Part shown: piece after piece, positions 5,750 through 22,376 of the stretch | Layout of the letters: the number at the start of each line of letters is the position of its first letter | How positions within the stretch are numbered: position 1 is the stretch's first letter | Virus record (IMG/VR): IMGVR_UViG_3300037470_000185 | Location: 1 to 26,982 of that record | Direction: 5' to 3' (one strand) | DNA from: a virus | Lineage: Duplodnaviria; Caudoviricetes | Length of the DNA stretch: 26,982 nucleotides | Notes under the pieces: generated by a model | The model's input: the letters and a program-made list of their open reading frames with translations, nothing else | Database searches by the model: none | What the model was told of the DNA's origin: nothing | Made by a program: the position numbers and the translations under genes

Positions 5750-6409
5750 ATGCCTACACCACCTACCGCGCCGCAAAGATCGATACCGTTTGCTGGAGTT
5801 CTTGACTTCACGTCGTTGCCCCCCGCCGCCAATAACGCCGGGGTGATGGCGCAATGCAACCCGCTCGTTGCCGGGCAGAATTATTTCTACATGGTTTCAG
5901 ATGGGACTTACTGGAGACCCGTAGGCGGGGACCAGATACTTTATAACCTATCTGCCCAAATTGATATGGCGGTTAATAATTCGGATCAGCTTCTTGTCTC
6001 TGTCCCTCTCCCGACAGGACTGTTGCCAGACGGCAGGAGCACCATAGAAGTGGTGCAAGGATGGGATAAGCTTTTGGGAACGTCGGACACCCTAACCACG
6101 ACCACCAGAATCGGCGCCGCGAATACCACCTCAGACGCTACTGTTTTTCCACCCAGTGCTATTGCGTCAACGAATATCACGATGGGTTTTGGTCATCGGT
6201 TTGCGCGGATATCTGCTACGGAGGTGCGAAAACAGGGAAGCCCAACGGTAACCGCGTTTTCCAGTGTATCGGCAAACGTGCGAACAGCGGCGGTGACGGT
6301 AGGGAGCATGGATACAGTTACGAATTATCTGGGAATCTATGGGAGAATGACCACCGGCTCAACTGAAAAAGGCGAACTGCATGCACTGACTGTGAGGTTA
6401 ATAGGATGA
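5750..6409 (+). CDS. beta-rich putative virion protein
   Basis: AGGAG RBS. LP.A...G...SDGTYWR motif typical of phage fibre/decoration proteins. Thr/Ser-rich. Confidence 0.55.
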   Translation: MPTPPTAPQRSIPFAGVLDFTSLPPAANNAGVMAQCNPLVAGQNYFYMVSDGTYWRPVGGDQILYNLSAQIDMAVNNSDQLLVSVPLPTGLLPDGRSTIEVVQGWDKLLGTSDTLTTTTRIGAANTTSDATVFPPSAIASTNITMGFGHRFARISATEVRKQGSPTVTAFSSVSANVRTAAVTVGSMDTVTNYLGIYGRMTTGSTEKGELHALTVRLIG

Positions 6410-6441
6410 AAACGAATCTTACTCTTTTAAAGGACATGAAA

Positions 6442-6972
6442 ATGCGCAAACTTATAATCCTTGCAGTTTTGGTGATCCTGGGCACCACCTCCACAGGAAT
6501 GGCTGCCATGACTTGCGTTGATGGCAAGGCAGACGGCACCGTTAAAAACGGTATCCGATCCTCCAATGGACGGGTCGTGCGGTTATACGCAACATGCACA
6601 CACGACACAACACCAGGCACCGCCGTAGCCGCGCTAACCACCAATATGCAGGCGGCTATTAATAATGGGTTGTATGTCTACAGATTTTCAATTATCCCTG
6701 GGGCCACAGGGCCAACCGACAATAGCGACCTACAAATTTTGGATGCAGACGGGCTGACCATCGTCGCGGCAGCTGGAAATGGCGCGAATGTAATTGATAA
6801 CACAGCAAAAACAAGCGTGATTTATGGAGATGGACCCACGCCGGGAAGCACCAACCTTTACCCTTTAGGTGATGGCACTGCGTGGGCAATCACCGTCACA
6901 AACAACGCGGTAAATAACAGCTCGTGGACGCTGGTAATGCAGGCGACCAGAGAAGGTGGGGATAACCGGTAA
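6442..6972 (+). CDS. signal-peptide-bearing beta-rich protein (176 aa)
   Basis: AAGGA RBS 7 nt before ATG 6442. MRKLIILAVLVILGTTSTGMA|AMTC signal peptide. Stop overlaps the portal start (TAATG). Confidence 0.7.
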   Translation: MRKLIILAVLVILGTTSTGMAAMTCVDGKADGTVKNGIRSSNGRVVRLYATCTHDTTPGTAVAALTTNMQAAINNGLYVYRFSIIPGATGPTDNSDLQILDADGLTIVAAAGNGANVIDNTAKTSVIYGDGPTPGSTNLYPLGDGTAWAITVTNNAVNNSSWTLVMQATREGGDNR

Positions 6973-11462: not shown

Positions 11463-11831
11463 ATGTCCCGTATTTTGAGAATGGGTGAACTTTATCACCG
11501 AAACGACGCAGATGCCACCGATGATCTGAATACCACATGTGCCGCTGATGTTTTGGCTATCCCTGTAACGCACGCCTACGTTGCTAAAACGACAGGCGCT
11601 GATGCTGAGGCTCTGACCCTGGCTGATGGCGTACCCGGCCAGGTGTTGGTTGTCAATCTGACCACTGATGGCGGCGGCGATGGCACCTTGACCCCGGCCA
11701 CCAAGACCGGCTTTTTGACCATCGTCTTTGCTGACGCACAAGATCAGGCCGTCTTGCTGTATGTTGATGACACTATTGGGTGGATTCTGATTGGCGCGAA
11801 AGGCGCAACTCAACCGCCTGTAACCACCTAA
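11463..11831 (+). CDS. putative capsid decoration or fibre protein
   Basis: Directly after coat. Beta-rich TLADG.PG...GG..TLT.AT...W domain, similar to the tailspike C-terminus. Confidence 0.6.
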   Translation: MSRILRMGELYHRNDADATDDLNTTCAADVLAIPVTHAYVAKTTGADAEALTLADGVPGQVLVVNLTTDGGGDGTLTPATKTGFLTIVFADAQDQAVLLYVDDTIGWILIGAKGATQPPVTT

Positions 11832-11870
11832 TCCTTGATGCTTTAAGCATCCTGAACAAAGGAGCAAGAA

Positions 11871-12842
11871 ATGCGTAAAACAAGAGATTTTTACCATACC
11901 GGGTTGCAGACCTCCCGGAGCCAGATTCAGGCAGCGTTGAACCTGACTGGCCCTGGCGATATCTGGTTTGTCGATTACCGGAACGGCAACAATTCAAATG
12001 GCGGGCAGTCATGGGCCGATGCTTTCAAAACCTACTCGGCAGCTGTCGCCGCAGCCACCGACAACAATAACGATGTTATCCTGATCGATGGCGACTCTAC
12101 CGTTGTTGAGACGGCAATGGTGTCTATCACCAAGAACCGCCTGCACACCATCGGCATCAACGGAATGCTCGGTCACTACGGCCAGGGGGCAAAGATTTCT
12201 TGTGCCGCCTCTTCTGGGGCCGCCAACATTGCCACGGTGCAGAACACCGGCATCCGCAACACCTTCATGGGTATCAAGTTCATCGGCAGCCACACCGTTA
12301 CAGAGGGGATTTACGCTGTTGCTGAGGGCGGGGAGTTTGCCCGGTATTTCAACTGCGAATTCTACAAAGACACCGACCTTGATGCAACAACCGCCGCCGA
12401 ACTGTTGCACAACGGTGACAGCGCCATGTTTTACGACTGTACGTTTGGGTCTACGGCAAATATCGTGGCTGATAATTGCATCCGCCCGAATGTGAAAGTC
12501 ACGGCTACTCTGGCCGGCAAGAAATGCAGGGACACCTATTTTGAGAACTGCCTGTTTTTCTCCAAGGCAGGTGGTACCGAACATGTCGCGGTATACGGTG
12601 CGAACGCCACGGATGTTGAAAGAATGTTGCTGATGAAGGATTGCACCTTTGTAAATAACATCCTTTCAGCGGCTACTCCGGCTCACGCGGTTGGATTCGG
12701 AGCAGCACAGACGGAAGGTGTGGTTATCTTGAAGAACTGCACCTCTGTAGACCATACCGTTATGGCGCAGGCCGCTGTTGGCATCTATGTTGATGGTGCA
12801 GTTCCCACATTTGCTTCTTCCGGCGTATCGGTCGCAAGCTAA
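11871..12842 (+). CDS. right-handed beta-helix (pectin-lyase-fold) protein, probably virion-associated
   Basis: IWFVD..NGNNSNGGQSWADAFKT..AAV cap. Repeated F.NC.F, F.DC.F and KDCTF rungs. Confidence 0.75.
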   Translation: MRKTRDFYHTGLQTSRSQIQAALNLTGPGDIWFVDYRNGNNSNGGQSWADAFKTYSAAVAAATDNNNDVILIDGDSTVVETAMVSITKNRLHTIGINGMLGHYGQGAKISCAASSGAANIATVQNTGIRNTFMGIKFIGSHTVTEGIYAVAEGGEFARYFNCEFYKDTDLDATTAAELLHNGDSAMFYDCTFGSTANIVADNCIRPNVKVTATLAGKKCRDTYFENCLFFSKAGGTEHVAVYGANATDVERMLLMKDCTFVNNILSAATPAHAVGFGAAQTEGVVILKNCTSVDHTVMAQAAVGIYVDGAVPTFASSGVSVAS

Positions 12843-16582: not shown

Positions 16583-16924
16583 ATGCAAGTAACCCCTAAA
16601 CCGCTTATCGCGTCACAACAGCTTACCGATTCCAACGCCACATACTACACGGCAACCAATGTGCGGACGATCATTGATAAAATGACCATCTGCAACACCA
16701 CGGCAGGAGCAGTAACGGCCACCATTGATATTGTAGATAGCGGTGGGGCGGCTGGTGTGACGGAACGGCTTATCTCCGCGCGAAGCATTGCAGCCGGAGA
16801 AACGTATCCGTGTCCTGAAGTGGCTGGGCACTACCTATCGAATGGTGATACTATCCAAGGTCTTGCCGGTGCTGCGGCTTCGCTTACCATACGGGCCAGC
16901 GGAAGAGAGGTATCCGGGGTATGA
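16583..16924 (+). CDS. small beta-sandwich virion protein (113 aa)
   Basis: AAGGAG RBS. YT...T.IDK.T.CN......I..GETY.CPE..GH.L..GD.I pattern seen in podovirus tail modules. Confidence 0.65.
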   Translation: MQVTPKPLIASQQLTDSNATYYTATNVRTIIDKMTICNTTAGAVTATIDIVDSGGAAGVTERLISARSIAAGETYPCPEVAGHYLSNGDTIQGLAGAAASLTIRASGREVSGV

Positions 16925-17949
16925 TAAACACTACCTCTTTATGCAACGTTTGCTACAAGAAAATCCCCGCAAAGATTTCAATAGAATCTGGCGCAGTTCA
17001 TATGCATAAAAAATGCAATGTCCACGGGGAATTTAGTTCATTGATTGACAAGGATGCAAAAATATTTACCGAAAATTACAATATAGGAACAGAGGGTATA
17101 AACAAGGCGATACTGGTGCCAGTAACAGATAGATGTAATATGGCGTGCAGCTGGTGTTTCACTAAGGGGGTTAAAACAGAAGAGAAAAGCGCGGAATATT
17201 ATGATAGGTTTCTAGTTGATTTAAAAATTTCTGGGTACTCGTTTCTTCTTACCGGTGGAGAACCAACAGAAAGGAAGGATTTCTTTGAATTCTGCAAGTA
17301 TTTATATTTGGCCGGATGGCCCGTTGTAACAATGACAAATATGATAAATTTTGCCGACGAACTGTTTGTAAAAGAATGCTTTAACGTGGGCCTAGTTAAC
17401 AATGGTTTGCTACACGCTGATTTCTCAATGCAACATCCAAAAAATTATTCAGGAGAGATTGCCGCAAAAAAATTCAAAGCAATTACAAACCTAGAAAAGT
17501 TTGGCATAAAAGCGAATTGCGTACAATTTTCAATATCAAGTCTTGACGAATTGGGGTACATAAGAGAATTTTTTAATGATACAAAGCACCTATACCACCA
17601 CATAAGAATAAGAACAATGTTCGGCAATTGGAAAGACTCTAGCGATAAAATATTTTTAAGTGATCTGCATAATTCATTCGTGGAAATATTTGGGGATTTA
17701 TCACCGATAAAAACCAGATTCCCGGAAAGTTCAAACATATATAGCCTTTACTTTTCTGTAGGATCAAACGGGTTTTCTTTAAGTTCAGGACCGACCGTGG
17801 AAAATGTTGACATGTTGTCCGCCAGAAGGCCCACCCACATGCTGGCCCTTGACGAAAGATATTATAGTTTCCCAGTTGCTCAAATAGTAAACGAAGGGAT
17901 ACATAAAGGTTGGTACAACGGATTCAAGTTGGAGGCTAACAATGCATGA
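16921..17949 (+). CDS. radical SAM enzyme with N-terminal rubredoxin-like metal ribbon (Tes/GDGT-MAS/MJ0619-like, lacking auxiliary-cluster Cys)
   Basis: C72xxxC76xxC79 (VTDRCNMACSWCF), LTGGEPT and MTN motifs. N-terminal C8xxC11-x20-C32xxH35. Overlaps both neighbouring genes. Confidence 0.9.
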   Translation: MINTTSLCNVCYKKIPAKISIESGAVHMHKKCNVHGEFSSLIDKDAKIFTENYNIGTEGINKAILVPVTDRCNMACSWCFTKGVKTEEKSAEYYDRFLVDLKISGYSFLLTGGEPTERKDFFEFCKYLYLAGWPVVTMTNMINFADELFVKECFNVGLVNNGLLHADFSMQHPKNYSGEIAAKKFKAITNLEKFGIKANCVQFSISSLDELGYIREFFNDTKHLYHHIRIRTMFGNWKDSSDKIFLSDLHNSFVEIFGDLSPIKTRFPESSNIYSLYFSVGSNGFSLSSGPTVENVDMLSARRPTHMLALDERYYSFPVAQIVNEGIHKGWYNGFKLEANNA

Positions 17950-18733
17950 TTTTTGCGAAGAAGGCCAAACAAAAAGAACTACCATATTTGATAGGGGTAT
18001 ATTAGAACACGCTAGGTTAGCGTGGTGCGGAATAGCAATAGCCGCTGGCGCAGCAATTGTCGGAGGAGTTATAGCTTCTGATTCATCTAGAAAGGCCGCT
18101 AACACTGCTGCGGACGCTTCAATGAACGCAACAAATACCGCAGCGGCATCACAAACAGAAGCCGCAAATACCGCAGCGGCATCACAAACAGAAGCCCTAA
18201 ATTATCTCAGAGAGATTGAAAGGGTCCCGCAGCAGTTCCGCCAAGAAGCACTAATGAAGCTTGGTGGGCTATCCGGACTGGAGGGCGGAGAGGGAAGCCA
18301 AGCGGAATTAATCGCAAGGGCGGAGAAATCACCCCTATATGCTGCTATCATGGGCGGGAGAAAGGCGGGTGAATCCGCTATCTTGCGCAACGCCTCGGCA
18401 ACCGGGGGGCTTCGCTCCGGTAATGTCCAGGGGGATATGTATGATTTCAATACGAACTTAAAAACCCAAGCCCTGCTTGAATCATACAACCAACAGCTTA
18501 CGGGCTTGCAGGGGTTAGCGCAACTGCCAAGTAACGCAAATAATATTGCTTCCACCATGTCTGGGGTAGGGACAACCTTGGCGGGCGGAATATCCGGGGC
18601 GGGCACGGCCACGGCAAATGGCATTATTGCTGGTGGGCAGATCCAACAGCAAAACATCCAAAACCAGGGCGACATCTGGGGCAAAGCTCTTTCTTCCGCC
18701 ATTACCGGCTACGCAAATAAGGGGGTGGTATAA
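17942..18733 (+). CDS. DNA ejection protein (P22 gp7-like) with an N-terminal leader
   Basis: GGAGG RBS. Hydrophobic AWCGIAIAAGAAIVGGVIAS segment, ILRNASATGGLRSGN motif, Gly/Ala/Gln-rich C-terminus. Confidence 0.85.
   Translation: MHDFCEEGQTKRTTIFDRGILEHARLAWCGIAIAAGAAIVGGVIASDSSRKAANTAADASMNATNTAAASQTEAANTAAASQTEALNYLREIERVPQQFRQEALMKLGGLSGLEGGEGSQAELIARAEKSPLYAAIMGGRKAGESAILRNASATGGLRSGNVQGDMYDFNTNLKTQALLESYNQQLTGLQGLAQLPSNANNIASTMSGVGTTLAGGISGAGTATANGIIAGGQIQQQNIQNQGDIWGKALSSAITGYANKGVV
18132..18196 (+). repeat. perfect 32-bp direct repeat with 33-bp period
   Basis: caaataccgcagcggcatcacaaacagaagcc occurs twice (NTAAASQTEA x2). Confidence 0.95.
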
Positions 18734-20073
18734 TGGCTAATCCTTTTTATATAAAACCCGCCTCAATGCTTCCTGGGTTTACTTCATTTTTGAGCGGGGT
18801 AGAGTCGCGCGCAGACTACGAGCGGGAGAAAACAAAAAAAGCTAAGCAGGAGACCATTAGGAAGCAGGCCGCCGGTCTGGCGCAGTCAGGTAATACCGAC
18901 GAGCTATACAAGCTCACCCTTGAAAATCCGTGGCTGACGGATGAGGTCACTAAAGCCTCCAAATGGCACAACGAGGAAATAAAAACCGACGCTATAGAAT
19001 CAGCAAGGCGCGTGCTAATGGGGGAATCTCCCGGGCAAGTAGGCATTGAGCATGCTGAAAAAGTCATTCAAGCTGGAGGCGACGCAACCAAACAAATAGA
19101 GCAGATCAAACAAGACCAACTAGAGCCAGAAGCAGCTATAAAAAGAGCAGAAATGTTCCTTCTCTTTCACGACCCCCAAACGTATAGGGCGCTGAAGGGA
19201 TCCCAAAAAAACAAAGGTCCGAAACAGCTGATTGTGAACGATCAACTTGTGACAATTGGCGAAGATGGAAAGGGTATAGCCTCTCAGATTGAGGGATTGC
19301 AGGGACTAGACGCACCGAAATCTGACTATGATAGGTGGAAACAGAACCCGGCTGAGTTTGCACAGTTTAGGTCCGCTAGAAGAGTTGGGGAAGGCGCGAC
19401 CAAAGAAACTGATGCGGAATTTTTTAGACGAGATCCGGAAGGGTATCGGAAATATAAGGCTGCTGGTAGAAAAGACAGCATGGTTGCAATAGAAAACCCG
19501 GACGGGACAACTTCTTATGTAGAGGGTGGGGCAGGAAGACCTCTAACCGCCCAACAAGCAAAACTTTTATCAGATGGAGAGCAGCTTAAGTTTGTCCTTG
19601 ATCCGTTGGAAGATTTACTCACAAACCAAAAAGAGCTGTTTGGTCCGGTTCGTGGGGCTGTCGGCAGTGCAAACCCATACAACGAAAAATCACGCACAGC
19701 CGACGCAACGTTGCGAAGGGCGCGACAAGTTGTCGGCTCATTTATGGAGGGTGGGGTTTTAAGAAAAGAAGATGAAGAGAAATACGCCAAAATGTTGCCT
19801 CAGTTGACAGATACACCCAAAATTGCACGAAACAAATTAAATGGCGTTAAAGATTTGCTTACAAAAAAGAGAGCGCAACTTGCTGCGGATTACGAATCGG
19901 CGGGATTTGACATGTCTGGGCAAAAGAAGCCTGCTGGCTCAACACCACCAGGGGGAGGAATGCCATTACCCCCCGAAGCGGCCAGCAAATTGCAAGCAGG
20001 AAAAATCACCGTATTCAAGAACGGCCAAAAATGGACGCTCGGCCAGAACGGCCAGCCCCAGAGGGTGCAATAA
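18733..20073 (+). CDS. DNA ejection protein (P22 gp20 position)
   Basis: Helical charged 446-aa protein coupled (TAATG) between the gp7-like and gp16-like genes. Confidence 0.7.
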   Translation: MANPFYIKPASMLPGFTSFLSGVESRADYEREKTKKAKQETIRKQAAGLAQSGNTDELYKLTLENPWLTDEVTKASKWHNEEIKTDAIESARRVLMGESPGQVGIEHAEKVIQAGGDATKQIEQIKQDQLEPEAAIKRAEMFLLFHDPQTYRALKGSQKNKGPKQLIVNDQLVTIGEDGKGIASQIEGLQGLDAPKSDYDRWKQNPAEFAQFRSARRVGEGATKETDAEFFRRDPEGYRKYKAAGRKDSMVAIENPDGTTSYVEGGAGRPLTAQQAKLLSDGEQLKFVLDPLEDLLTNQKELFGPVRGAVGSANPYNEKSRTADATLRRARQVVGSFMEGGVLRKEDEEKYAKMLPQLTDTPKIARNKLNGVKDLLTKKRAQLAADYESAGFDMSGQKKPAGSTPPGGGMPLPPEAASKLQAGKITVFKNGQKWTLGQNGQPQRVQ

Positions 20074-22376
20074 TGGCACAGGGTAGAGTTGAGGTTTTTG
20101 TTCCCGAGAGCAGCGAATGGGACGTTGTGGATGTTGCTGATACTCAACAGCTGGGGCCAGACACCGGCAGCGAATGGGATGTGGTTGATGAGTCTGGGCC
20201 ACACGATGCTATCATTGCTCAATACCATGCCGGGGAGCTACCAGACCGGAAGAAGTCAATCGTTGAGGAGTTGGCTAAACGTGGCGTTATTGCGTTGGAT
20301 CAATTAAAAAGCGGAGCACGGTCTGTTGTCGAAGGGGCAGCAGGGTTGCCGCTCATGGTGGGAGATGCGGCCAACACCCTTATAAATTATGGAATCAGCG
20401 GAGCAAACGAGCTTACCGGTGCCAATATCCCAGAGCTAAGCATGCCGTCCGAAACAACCAACCAAATGCTGGATGCTACCGGAGCACAAGAAGACACAGG
20501 TATTACTGGCGACATAATCAGGGGGGCAGCAGGGGCAATGACTTTCCCGGCGGCGGCAATAGCAACCCCAGCAGCAAGTGCAACTGGTACAGCTTTAAAG
20601 ACAGCCTTAGCCGCAAAGCCCGTTGCTCAGGTTATTTCGGGCTCGGGGTCCGGCATGGGCTCTGGCCTTGTTCGTGAAGCAGGAGGTGGGGAGGGGGCGC
20701 AGATGGTAGGTAGTCTTGTCGGCGGCATGGTTCCATATGCCGCCAAACAGACACCGGCTGCGTTCCGTAGTGGCGTGACCGGAAAGCGTGGCCCGGAAGG
20801 GGTTGCTGAAAACCTAAAGACATTCGGGGAAGCCAACACGACCCCCTCTGTAGGGCAGGCTACACAAGGAAGGGCGGCACAGGCGGCGGAAAGCTTCTTG
20901 TCTCGCAGTCCAGGAAGTGCCGGGGTTATTGCTGACAAGGCAACAACACAGGGCGATGATATTGCCAGGATGATCGAGGAGATTGCCGGTAAATCAGGAG
21001 GCAAGGCCCAGACCGGCAAGGCCATAAAAGAGGGCGTTGCTGATTTCGTTACACGGTTTAAAGAAAAGTCGGGGGAGCTTTACGGGCTGGTAGACGGGGT
21101 AATCTCACCCAAACAAAAAGTTCCTGTGAACAACACCATTTCCACATTGCGGAATCTCACATCAAGAATAAAAGGGGCCACAAAAACCTCAGAGGAATTT
21201 ATCAATCCCAAGCTGGCCAGGATAAAGCAGAACCTCATTCAGGATACAGGGGAAACTATCAAGGCCCGCAGGGACGCCGTGAAAAGCACCATGGACCAGA
21301 TAAAGACGGTACGGGGACAAATAGACGATATAGAGCGCAGCATCATTGACCAGGCCAGCGCGGAAGAAACAGTTGCGCAACGGCTTGGCGGCAAAATGAA
21401 AACCGGCAAAAGAGATAGTTTGGCAATTAAAGAGCTTACCGAAAAAAAAGAAGCTTTGACAAAGCGGCTGTCTTCTGAATTGCCGGAAATGCTTAAAGAT
21501 GATCTTGCGGAGTTAACGAAGGGCCGACAGATGCCCTACCAAGCTATGAAAGAATTGCGAACCAGAGTTGGGTATCTTCTGGACTCTTCCGAGATTATGT
21601 CTGATGTTCCAAAGTCTGAATTGAAAAAGCTGTATGGCGCAATTTCCCGCGACATAGAGGGGGGGCTGCCCCCAGAAGCAACGAGCTTTCTGAAGAGGGC
21701 GAACACATTTTATAAGGCCGGGAAGGATAGAGTTGACACATTGGAAAATGTGTTGTCAGGCAAGACATATGAGAAAATATACAATGCGGCGATTGGAGAA
21801 ACCAAAGACGGGCCGACCCTAATAAACAAGGTGTTGCGTAGTATGCCCAGGCAAACAAGGCAGAAGATGGCGCACGAATTCTTGCGGACCATGGGGAAGT
21901 CAACGGCGGGCAAACAAAACGCGGCGGTTGATGCTTTTTCAACGGAAACGTTTCTCACCAATTGGGGCAAGATGGATAGCAAGGCAAAGTCGGCTTTGTT
22001 CTCGAATATCAGCCCGGATTATATCAAGTCCATTGATTCAATCGCAAAGGTTGCGGAAAATATAAGAGCCGGATCGAAGGTGTTTAGTAATCCGTCAGGG
22101 ACACAACAGGCCGTATCTTTGCAGCAAACTATCGGTGGAGCAATGGTTTTATTGCTAACCGGGAACGTGGGGCCAGCGATAGCGGCAGTGATAGAACCCG
22201 CAATCGCCTATGGTGCGGCAAAATGGATGAGAAACCCCAATATTGTTAAGTGGTTGGCACAAAATAACCGTAGACCAGTAGAACGTCTACCTATTTTAAT
22301 AAACAGTTTAGCAAGACAACACAGAAACGACGCAGAAGTTCAGGATTTTGCAGAAACCATCCAAGGAGAAAAGTAA
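20073..22376 (+). CDS. DNA ejection protein (P22 gp16 position, 767 aa)
   Basis: TAATG-coupled start at 20073. Gly/Ala-rich hydrophobic region, PSVGQAT, NPSGT near the C-terminus. Confidence 0.75.
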   Translation: MAQGRVEVFVPESSEWDVVDVADTQQLGPDTGSEWDVVDESGPHDAIIAQYHAGELPDRKKSIVEELAKRGVIALDQLKSGARSVVEGAAGLPLMVGDAANTLINYGISGANELTGANIPELSMPSETTNQMLDATGAQEDTGITGDIIRGAAGAMTFPAAAIATPAASATGTALKTALAAKPVAQVISGSGSGMGSGLVREAGGGEGAQMVGSLVGGMVPYAAKQTPAAFRSGVTGKRGPEGVAENLKTFGEANTTPSVGQATQGRAAQAAESFLSRSPGSAGVIADKATTQGDDIARMIEEIAGKSGGKAQTGKAIKEGVADFVTRFKEKSGELYGLVDGVISPKQKVPVNNTISTLRNLTSRIKGATKTSEEFINPKLARIKQNLIQDTGETIKARRDAVKSTMDQIKTVRGQIDDIERSIIDQASAEETVAQRLGGKMKTGKRDSLAIKELTEKKEALTKRLSSELPEMLKDDLAELTKGRQMPYQAMKELRTRVGYLLDSSEIMSDVPKSELKKLYGAISRDIEGGLPPEATSFLKRANTFYKAGKDRVDTLENVLSGKTYEKIYNAAIGETKDGPTLINKVLRSMPRQTRQKMAHEFLRTMGKSTAGKQNAAVDAFSTETFLTNWGKMDSKAKSALFSNISPDYIKSIDSIAKVAENIRAGSKVFSNPSGTQQAVSLQQTIGGAMVLLLTGNVGPAIAAVIEPAIAYGAAKWMRNPNIVKWLAQNNRRPVERLPILINSLARQHRNDAEVQDFAETIQGEK

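Follow-up and report, generated by a model that had tools for sequence, protein, structure and literature searches.

A compact Tes-fold radical SAM enzyme encoded in a swappable slot beside a phage ejection gene and its likely role in tailoring the N-terminal tip of the ejection protein

This study investigated a radical S-adenosylmethionine (SAM) enzyme gene in the morphogenesis operon of a Caudoviricetes virus (IMG/VR record IMGVR_UViG_3300037470_000185, positions 1 to 26,982; this whole stretch of 26,982 bases is hereafter termed the window). The enzyme has the fold and cofactor motifs of the radical SAM superfamily, its gene is coupled to that of a gp7-like pilot (ejection) protein, other types of protein-modifying enzyme alternate with it in this slot, and the N-terminal tip of the pilot co-varies with the slot occupant. 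The enzyme likely modifies the pilot tip before packaging, by capping or cross-linking it, and we lean toward the tip itself being the substrate. The preliminary description of this DNA had placed a radical SAM gene with CxxxCxxC and GGEP motifs in the tail and ejection operon, overlapping the gp7-like gene by 8 nt; both open reading frames (ORFs) and both motifs were confirmed. The features of the two genes are as follows.

16921 to 17949, plus strand: compact Tes/GDGT-MAS-fold radical SAM enzyme, 342 amino acids, of the stand-alone leader-type group (profiles, model, and tree)
16942 to 17025, plus strand: rubredoxin-like metal site C8-x2-C11-x20-C32-x2-H35 (invariant in 74 sequences)
17134 to 17157, plus strand: radical SAM cluster motif C72-x3-C76-x2-C79 (invariant in 74 sequences)
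17254 to 17265, plus strand: GGEP SAM-binding motif, G112GEP (invariant in 74 sequences)
17518 to 17520, plus strand: Cys200, the sole further invariant cysteine of the stand-alone family (alignment)
17931 to 17949, plus strand: ribosome-binding site GGAGG (17931 to 17935), 6 bases ahead of the pilot start, with the 8-nt stop/start overlap (sequence)
17942 to 18733, plus strand: gp7-like pilot/ejection protein, 263 amino acids (phrog_598 "DNA ejection", E = 4.1e-8; 701 homologs)
17942 to 18022, plus strand: polar leader, 27 residues, with a low guanine-plus-cytosine (GC) content like that of the enzyme gene (sequence)
18023 to 18031, plus strand: Trp28-Cys29-Gly30, the window version of aromatic-(Cys/Met)-Gly, predicted modification site (alignment)
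18026 to 18076, plus strand: Gly/Ala-rich hydrophobic segment with a mean hydropathy of 2.24, predicted to be the tip that enters the membrane (hydropathy)

The enzyme matched the profiles PF23545 (E = 6.9e-15) and PF04055 (E = 8.1e-8; 33 bits against a cut-off of 29.5), and its model (pLDDT 95) matched radical SAM structures and displayed the CxxxCxxC motif and partial TIM barrel of the superfamily. The closest solved structure was that of GDGT-MAS, a lipid-tail enzyme that couples the terminal carbons of such tails (PDB 7TOL and 7TOM) and that, according to the accessible portion of its report, carries a rubredoxin-like site at the same spacing (C-x2-C-x20-C-x2-H; PMC9433317). The earlier suggestion of a likeness to Tes/GDGT-MAS was thus borne out by the PF23545 match, the shared metal site, and the structural match. 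Membership in Tes/GDGT-MAS, however, was ruled out by the missing auxiliary cluster ligands. The ligands of [Fe4S4]N (three cysteines plus a histidine) are not present, no cysteine occurring between H35 and C72 of the window enzyme, a region in which GDGT-MAS has a Cys-rich stretch; the ligands of [Fe4S4]C, the cluster that serves the C-S intermediate, are not present either, the window enzyme having no cysteine after C200 and later cysteines varying across the family. Whereas GDGT-MAS and Tes comprise about 500 residues with both auxiliary clusters, as far as the same part of that report describes them, the window enzyme has 342 residues and neither cluster, is phage-encoded, and adjoins a virion gene. 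It scored 68.7 bits on the NCBIfam Tes/GDGT-MAS model NF045702 (cut-off 450) and 70.3 bits on the TrsS model (cut-off 490). Membership among the SPASM-type maturases of peptides that are made on ribosomes and then modified post-translationally (RiPPs) was likewise ruled out by missing cluster ligands: the window enzyme showed no Pfam match to a SPASM/twitch domain and no C-terminal cysteines, and its scores on all maturase models were far under the cut-offs. Cys200 is a candidate active-site residue. Two relatives carry extra parts, P0300 an intein with a homing endonuclease and P0367 a C-terminal S24/S26 peptidase domain.

The ribosome-binding site and the stop/start overlap suggest that the enzyme and pilot genes are translationally coupled. 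No in-frame ATG, GTG, or TTG was found between the start of the window pilot ORF and codon 61, and the polar extension therefore belongs to the pilot reading frame; a mis-called pilot start was ruled out by the strong ribosome site and by this distance to the next standard start. The pilot is predicted to be packaged in the virion and ejected at infection. When the enzyme (39-row alignment) was co-folded with pilot residues 1 to 55, a 4Fe-4S cluster, and SAM, the score was 0.02 (mark 0.32), and the result was counted neither way. Within the pilot gene, positions 18131 to 18196 hold a tandem duplication of 33 nt (11 residues repeated), and the pilot of the near relative L003 is 22 residues shorter.

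To place the enzyme among its relatives, we collected 73 loci at 40% identity or more to the window enzyme from three scans; a scan with the leader-group alignment yielded no additional loci. The window and 40 of these loci were scored (41 rows), and the 33 unscored loci were partial, broke off at the enzyme or close to it, or repeated the same or a nearly identical contig. The unscored loci include L034, discussed below, and L050, which has only 33 bases downstream of the enzyme. A small ORF lay directly downstream of the enzyme in all 41 rows, starting between -19 and +5 nt from the enzyme stop except in L020 (+131), where it follows a junction duplication. The downstream protein passed a test for a hydrophobic Gly/Ala-rich tip in 39 of the 41 rows, as did 1 of 16 other window proteins, with thresholds that were fixed after the sequences had been inspected. 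These results agree with the earlier expectation that homologs precede pilot-type genes, and because the adjacency recurs across the family at 40-68% identity it exceeds chance. The enzyme of L037 and of its three near copies is encoded between terminase and portal-type genes, ahead of a 122-residue protein that starts with Met-Phe and has a Gly/Ala-rich segment. This second enzyme position, in the terminase/portal interval, is located at L037:6992-8393 and is also seen in L011-L013 and L042. In L020:7990-8200, the junction of enzyme end and pilot start is duplicated, possibly a trace of recombination at the boundary. Four loci fell in genome bins titled Nitrospiraceae, Geobacteraceae, Sulfurovum, and Clostridia, although such bins can misplace phage contigs.

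The pilots of the scored rows exhibited two types of N-terminus. A leader ending in aromatic-(Cys/Met)-Gly was present in 11 of the 41 (Cys in six, Met in five), with Trp in the window and L003 only, and 30 were leaderless and started with Met-Trp, Met-Phe, Met-Tyr, or Met-Val. The polar extension followed by Trp-Cys to which the preliminary description had drawn attention is present in the window (Trp28-Cys29), but it is not conserved, and its role as a chemical handle was not upheld, since Trp occurs in 2 of the 11 leader-type pilots and Met replaces Cys in 5. Trp-Cys was accordingly ruled out as a conserved site; the conserved motif is aromatic-(Cys/Met)-Gly. The proposal that leader and Trp/Cys accompany only the radical SAM enzyme held for the leader with aromatic-(Cys/Met)-Gly, which was seen only with enzymes of this group; the two control sets described below gave one hit each (of 79 and of 80), the former being the window's twin and the latter not a leader.

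We then compared tips, labeled from the pilot, with a tree built from the enzyme sequence. A quick IQ-TREE search placed the enzymes of the 30 leaderless loci in a single clade (SH-aLRT 96) and the 11 leader-type enzymes outside it, in two groups; enzyme positions 65, 67, 138, 202, and 227, among others, distinguish the leader and leaderless groups. In a FastTree analysis of 61 sequences, 55 phage enzymes grouped apart from six outgroups (support 0.999), and a GNAT-linked clade (20 sequences; 0.994) was sister to the stand-alone group (35 sequences; 0.98), within which support was 0.83 for the leaderless set and 0.30 for the leader set. Both tip types occurred within each of three pilot-body clusters. 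The pilot body of L038 is 77% identical to that of the window, whereas its enzyme is 40% identical and its tip is leaderless, and DNA similarity between the two picks up again at window position 18157. The mixed tip types and the L038 comparison indicate that enzyme and tip moved together as a cassette; in the sequences compared, the pilot N-terminus follows the enzyme clade rather than the pilot body. The GC content is 0.375 in the enzyme gene, 0.41 in pilot codons 1 to 30, 0.53 in the remaining pilot gene, and about 0.5 in most structural genes, and the enzyme gene differs from that of L003 by 13 synonymous and 1 non-synonymous codon differences.

We next analyzed which genes occupy the slot before other pilots. 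Control set 1 was drawn from the pilot family of the window and contained 80 viral loci, of which 78 were usable (one lacked a usable ORF and one was cut off), and control set 2 comprised the best 80 of 592 loci from another pilot family. In set 1, the gene directly upstream of the pilot belonged to a 115-residue family in 49 loci and was a cupin with or without SET in 10, a window-type enzyme in 4, a GNAT in 2, an Asp/Asn-hydroxylase in 2, DUF2824 in 1, and another gene in 10. In set 2, it was a cupin (with or without SET) in 51, a member of the GNAT/DUF2824 clusters in 7, a relative of the 113-residue non-enzyme gene that precedes the enzyme in the window in 10, and unassigned in 12. The cupin label is based on 3 of 7 members scoring over the Cupin_2 cut-off. 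DUF2824/GNAT genes occupy the same position at L278 and L348. The anticipated alternation of enzymes in the slot was thereby recovered.

Several slot occupants deserve description in their own right. The commonest, the unannotated 115-residue family (L222:3088-3444 and 48 further loci), has an invariant histidine and accompanies pilots that start with Met-Gly or Met-Ser; its nearest named cluster in the ESM Atlas was DUF2824 (0.92, 148 shared features; hhalign E = 0.2), and it is possibly GNAT-like. Cupin-SET fusions in both orders occur in the pilot slot (L221, L230, L249, L274, L323, and L364), and the label "tail fiber" given to their cupin portion in PHROGs (phrog_12032 and phrog_24280) looks like a mis-annotation. 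Asp/Asn-hydroxylase-like 2-oxoglutarate (2OG) oxygenases occupy the slot at L236:2867-3445 and L285:506-1054, and both pilots begin Met-Pro-Trp. An unassigned 121-residue gene lies beside a pilot with a different leader at L319:1891-2256 and L351:1669-2031.

The slot occupants were accompanied by distinct pilot starts, as the preliminary description had predicted. After removal of identical starts, residue 2 was small in 59 of 60 and 62 of 68 controls and in 0 of 29 leaderless radical SAM pilots, and it was aromatic in 1 of 60 and 3 of 68 controls and in 25 of 29 leaderless radical SAM pilots; the start codons were picked by script, and the counts are tied to ancestry. Bacteria remove Met1 before a small residue 2 and retain it before a bulky one. 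Under this rule, Gly, Ser, Thr, Ala, or Pro would come to lie at the N-terminus of the control pilots, and the stand-alone pilots would keep Met.

The sister clade links the same fold to acyltransferases. A scan returned 29 loci, of which 6 weak partial ones were dropped, and the 23 kept, together with L133 and L079, made up 25 loci, several of them near copies; L237, tallied in control set 1, is also a member. A GNAT was adjacent or fused to the enzyme in all 25, as judged by a profile for which 12 of 15 seeds came from these loci (Pfam alone confirmed 8 of 14 candidates tested), and a pilot profile match was found in 21. Seven representatives carried a C-terminal GNAT-like fusion, six of them over the Pfam cut-off. 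The pilots mostly start with Met-Ser or Met-Gly, and those of L416 and L417/L418 carry a leader that ends in Met-Gly. A B12 radical SAM gene lay upstream in 8 of 25 loci, and the cassette lay downstream of the pilot gene in 6 of 25. No GNAT of the sister-clade family was found on the same strand near the 73 stand-alone loci. The B12 radical SAM gene, the Tes-fold enzyme, the GNAT, and the pilot together form a three-enzyme virion-operon cassette in L400 (2880-4001), L403, L404, L405, L407, L408, L409, and L420. A Glycosyltransferase-2-like gene is present in the cassette at L079:2721-3296 (Pfam E = 3e-4, under the cut-off) and L415:4669-5244 (no match).

In the mechanism that we propose, the enzyme and pilot would be made together and the enzyme would bind the tip. 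A 5'-deoxyadenosyl radical would then abstract hydrogen from a group located where the hydrophobic segment begins, namely the GNAT-added acyl cap in the GNAT clade, the retained Met1 in leaderless pilots, or the Cys/Met of aromatic-(Cys/Met)-Gly in leader-type pilots (Cys29 here). The resulting covalent hydrophobic cap or cross-link would replace N-acylation and aid entry of the tip into the host membrane at ejection. That the chemistry takes place on the sulfur residue or cap in this manner is a tentative proposal. A broader scheme is equally speculative: acyltransferase, cupin, 2OG oxygenase, SET, B12 methylases, and the Tes-fold enzyme may constitute an interchangeable cassette with which short-tailed phages tailor their membrane-piercing ejection proteins, and in which the Tes-fold enzyme would join the terminal carbon of the cap (an acyl chain or a Met or Cys side chain) to a neighboring pilot subunit or lipid, creating a covalent membrane anchor on a virion protein by chemistry taken from the synthesis of tetraether lipids.

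Other explanations were weighed against tip modification. The substrate could be a free lipid, acyl-coenzyme A, or acyl-acyl carrier protein, as for Tes, with the product moved to the pilot by a GNAT or host enzyme or co-packaged; the lipid-tail function of the closest solved structure agrees with this, as do the acyltransferase (25 of 25), B12 methylase (8 of 25), and glycosyltransferase-like gene (two loci) of the sister clade, whereas the lack of a sister-clade-family GNAT near the stand-alone loci, the stand-alone pilots without the small residue 2 typical of GNAT-associated pilots, and the missing Tes auxiliary clusters make it improbable. We assign a similarly low probability to the slot being an accessory-gene insertion hotspot whose enzyme targets DNA or a host molecule while the pilot tip hitchhikes. 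The action of phage GNATs on host proteins and DNA, the low GC content common to enzyme gene and leader, the return of DNA similarity to L038 only from 18157, and the empty slot before some pilots would fit this reading, but the cassette keeps next to the pilot whichever side it occupies (6 of 25 downstream), it goes with a similar tip at a different place in the operon (L037), and the bulky residue 2 is kept in unrelated pilot bodies and with enzymes that share only 40-49% identity with that of the window. In addition, no family member with sufficient flanking sequence was found among replication or DNA-modification genes, although L034 could not be assigned a context. A chaperone role, in which the protein would bind the hydrophobic tip and keep it shielded up to packaging with no chemical change, would accommodate the many unrelated folds in the slot and a P22 gp7 that appears unblocked in the available part of its report (PMC8402733); the invariance of the catalytic cysteines and GGEP in all 74 sequences and the enzyme class of every nameable slot occupant render it very unlikely. 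Least probable is a RiPP-type Trp-Cys cross-link or thioether after the leader. Trp28-Cys29 does follow a polar leader, and leader and motif were seen together only with the window's enzyme group, but the substitutions described above, the 30 leaderless pilots, and the absence of a SPASM domain leave little room for it.

Several observations weigh against modification of the tip. The tip-coding bases abut the enzyme gene, and a crossover inside the pilot gene can thus yield part of the co-variation; such linkage is least able to explain the downstream cassette in six loci and the L037 position. The Fisher p values for the co-variation (7e-17 and 1e-22) ignore relatedness, and the residue-2 pattern has exceptions, namely L349 (Met-Phe without an enzyme), L327 and L346 (Met-Val with a GNAT), and L343 (Met-Val). 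The slot holds no enzyme in about 10 of the 78 control pilots of set 1 and in at least 10 of the 80 of set 2, so modification cannot be a universal requirement. Only a weak GNAT link was obtained for the commonest occupant, profile searches with the 115-residue family giving no significant match. Within the stand-alone family, phrog_598 was matched by 5 of 10 downstream proteins tested, the other five having no PHROG match, and L034, a core enzyme with an aberrant end, has no pilot-like ORF downstream. Among 50,697 cultured phage records, tblastn found no match to the window enzyme or to a GNAT-clade enzyme. [Fe4S4]C, the holder of the first radical in GDGT-MAS, is absent, and Tes-type coupling is not simply transferable. 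Phage GNATs are described as modifying host proteins and DNA in the accessible portions of two reports (PMC7824862 and PMC13552765). The analogy drawn earlier with N-terminal processing of P22 gp7 proved weaker than claimed, since the available text reports that the mature N-terminus was sequenceable and that leader removal left about 60% of the burst (PMC8402733).

Related systems differ from the one described here in several respects. In the anti-phage system HXS, a protein of full size is matured by radical SAM chemistry at DNA entry, according to the part of its report available (PMC13128918), but the system is a host defense with a different enzyme family, and the window enzyme scored 24.2 on the HxsC model (cut-off 267.9). 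In the proteusin polytheonamide, B12 radical SAM methylation by PoyC builds a hydrophobic N-terminal cap thought to help membrane insertion, as stated in the accessible section of PMC11285071. The GNAT clade resembles proteusin tailoring in its B12 radical SAM genes (8 of 25 loci); a proteusin, however, is a short peptide that is secreted, has a large leader and no Tes-fold enzyme, and is not a virion protein. With regard to the leader-plus-core arrangement of RiPP precursors, a leader is present here in 11 of 41 pilots and absent from 30, and the neighbor of the enzyme is a structural protein. The slot genes of P22 and T7, which we take to be gene 14 (DUF2824 family) and gene 13 (GNAT-like), hold the same position before pilot genes with a different enzyme class. 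The literature searched gave neither a function for the small genes immediately ahead of pilots in P22- and T7-type phages nor a description of enzymatic tailoring of ejection-protein tips, most subscription journals and supplements being outside its coverage; the available portions of PMC13434306, PMC8954989, PMC11784390, and PMC9728967 contained nothing relevant.

The remainder of the window provides the context of the two genes. Its operon is a P22-like morphogenesis operon with terminase, portal, coat, gp4-like, gp10-like, and tailspike genes (Pfam and PHROG profile matches). The pilot gene is the first of three ejection genes, with the gp10-like gene upstream and two larger genes and the tailspike gene downstream.

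16583 to 16924, plus strand: 113-residue upstream gene with a 4-nt overlap, relatives of which directly precede the pilot gene where the slot is empty (context)
18733 to 22376, plus strand: pair of larger genes that probably encode ejection proteins and whose positions are those of gp20-like and gp16-like genes (weak PHROG matches; context)

Genes at 5750-6972, between terminase and portal, and at 11463-12842, after the coat gene, are unannotated and had no Pfam or PHROG match. An ORF of 182 residues on the minus strand (887-1435) contains a long Ala/Trp/Asp/Gly repeat tract.

If the proposed modification of the pilot tip holds, it would represent a form of virion maturation for which no example has been described. 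The slot offers a testable answer to how pilot proteins remain soluble within the capsid before they enter the host membrane. The enzyme types are each paired with a matching tip sequence, so that enzyme-tip pairs can be co-expressed and swapped. If true, this reading would provide a protein substrate for the Tes fold and a minimal version of Tes without auxiliary clusters.
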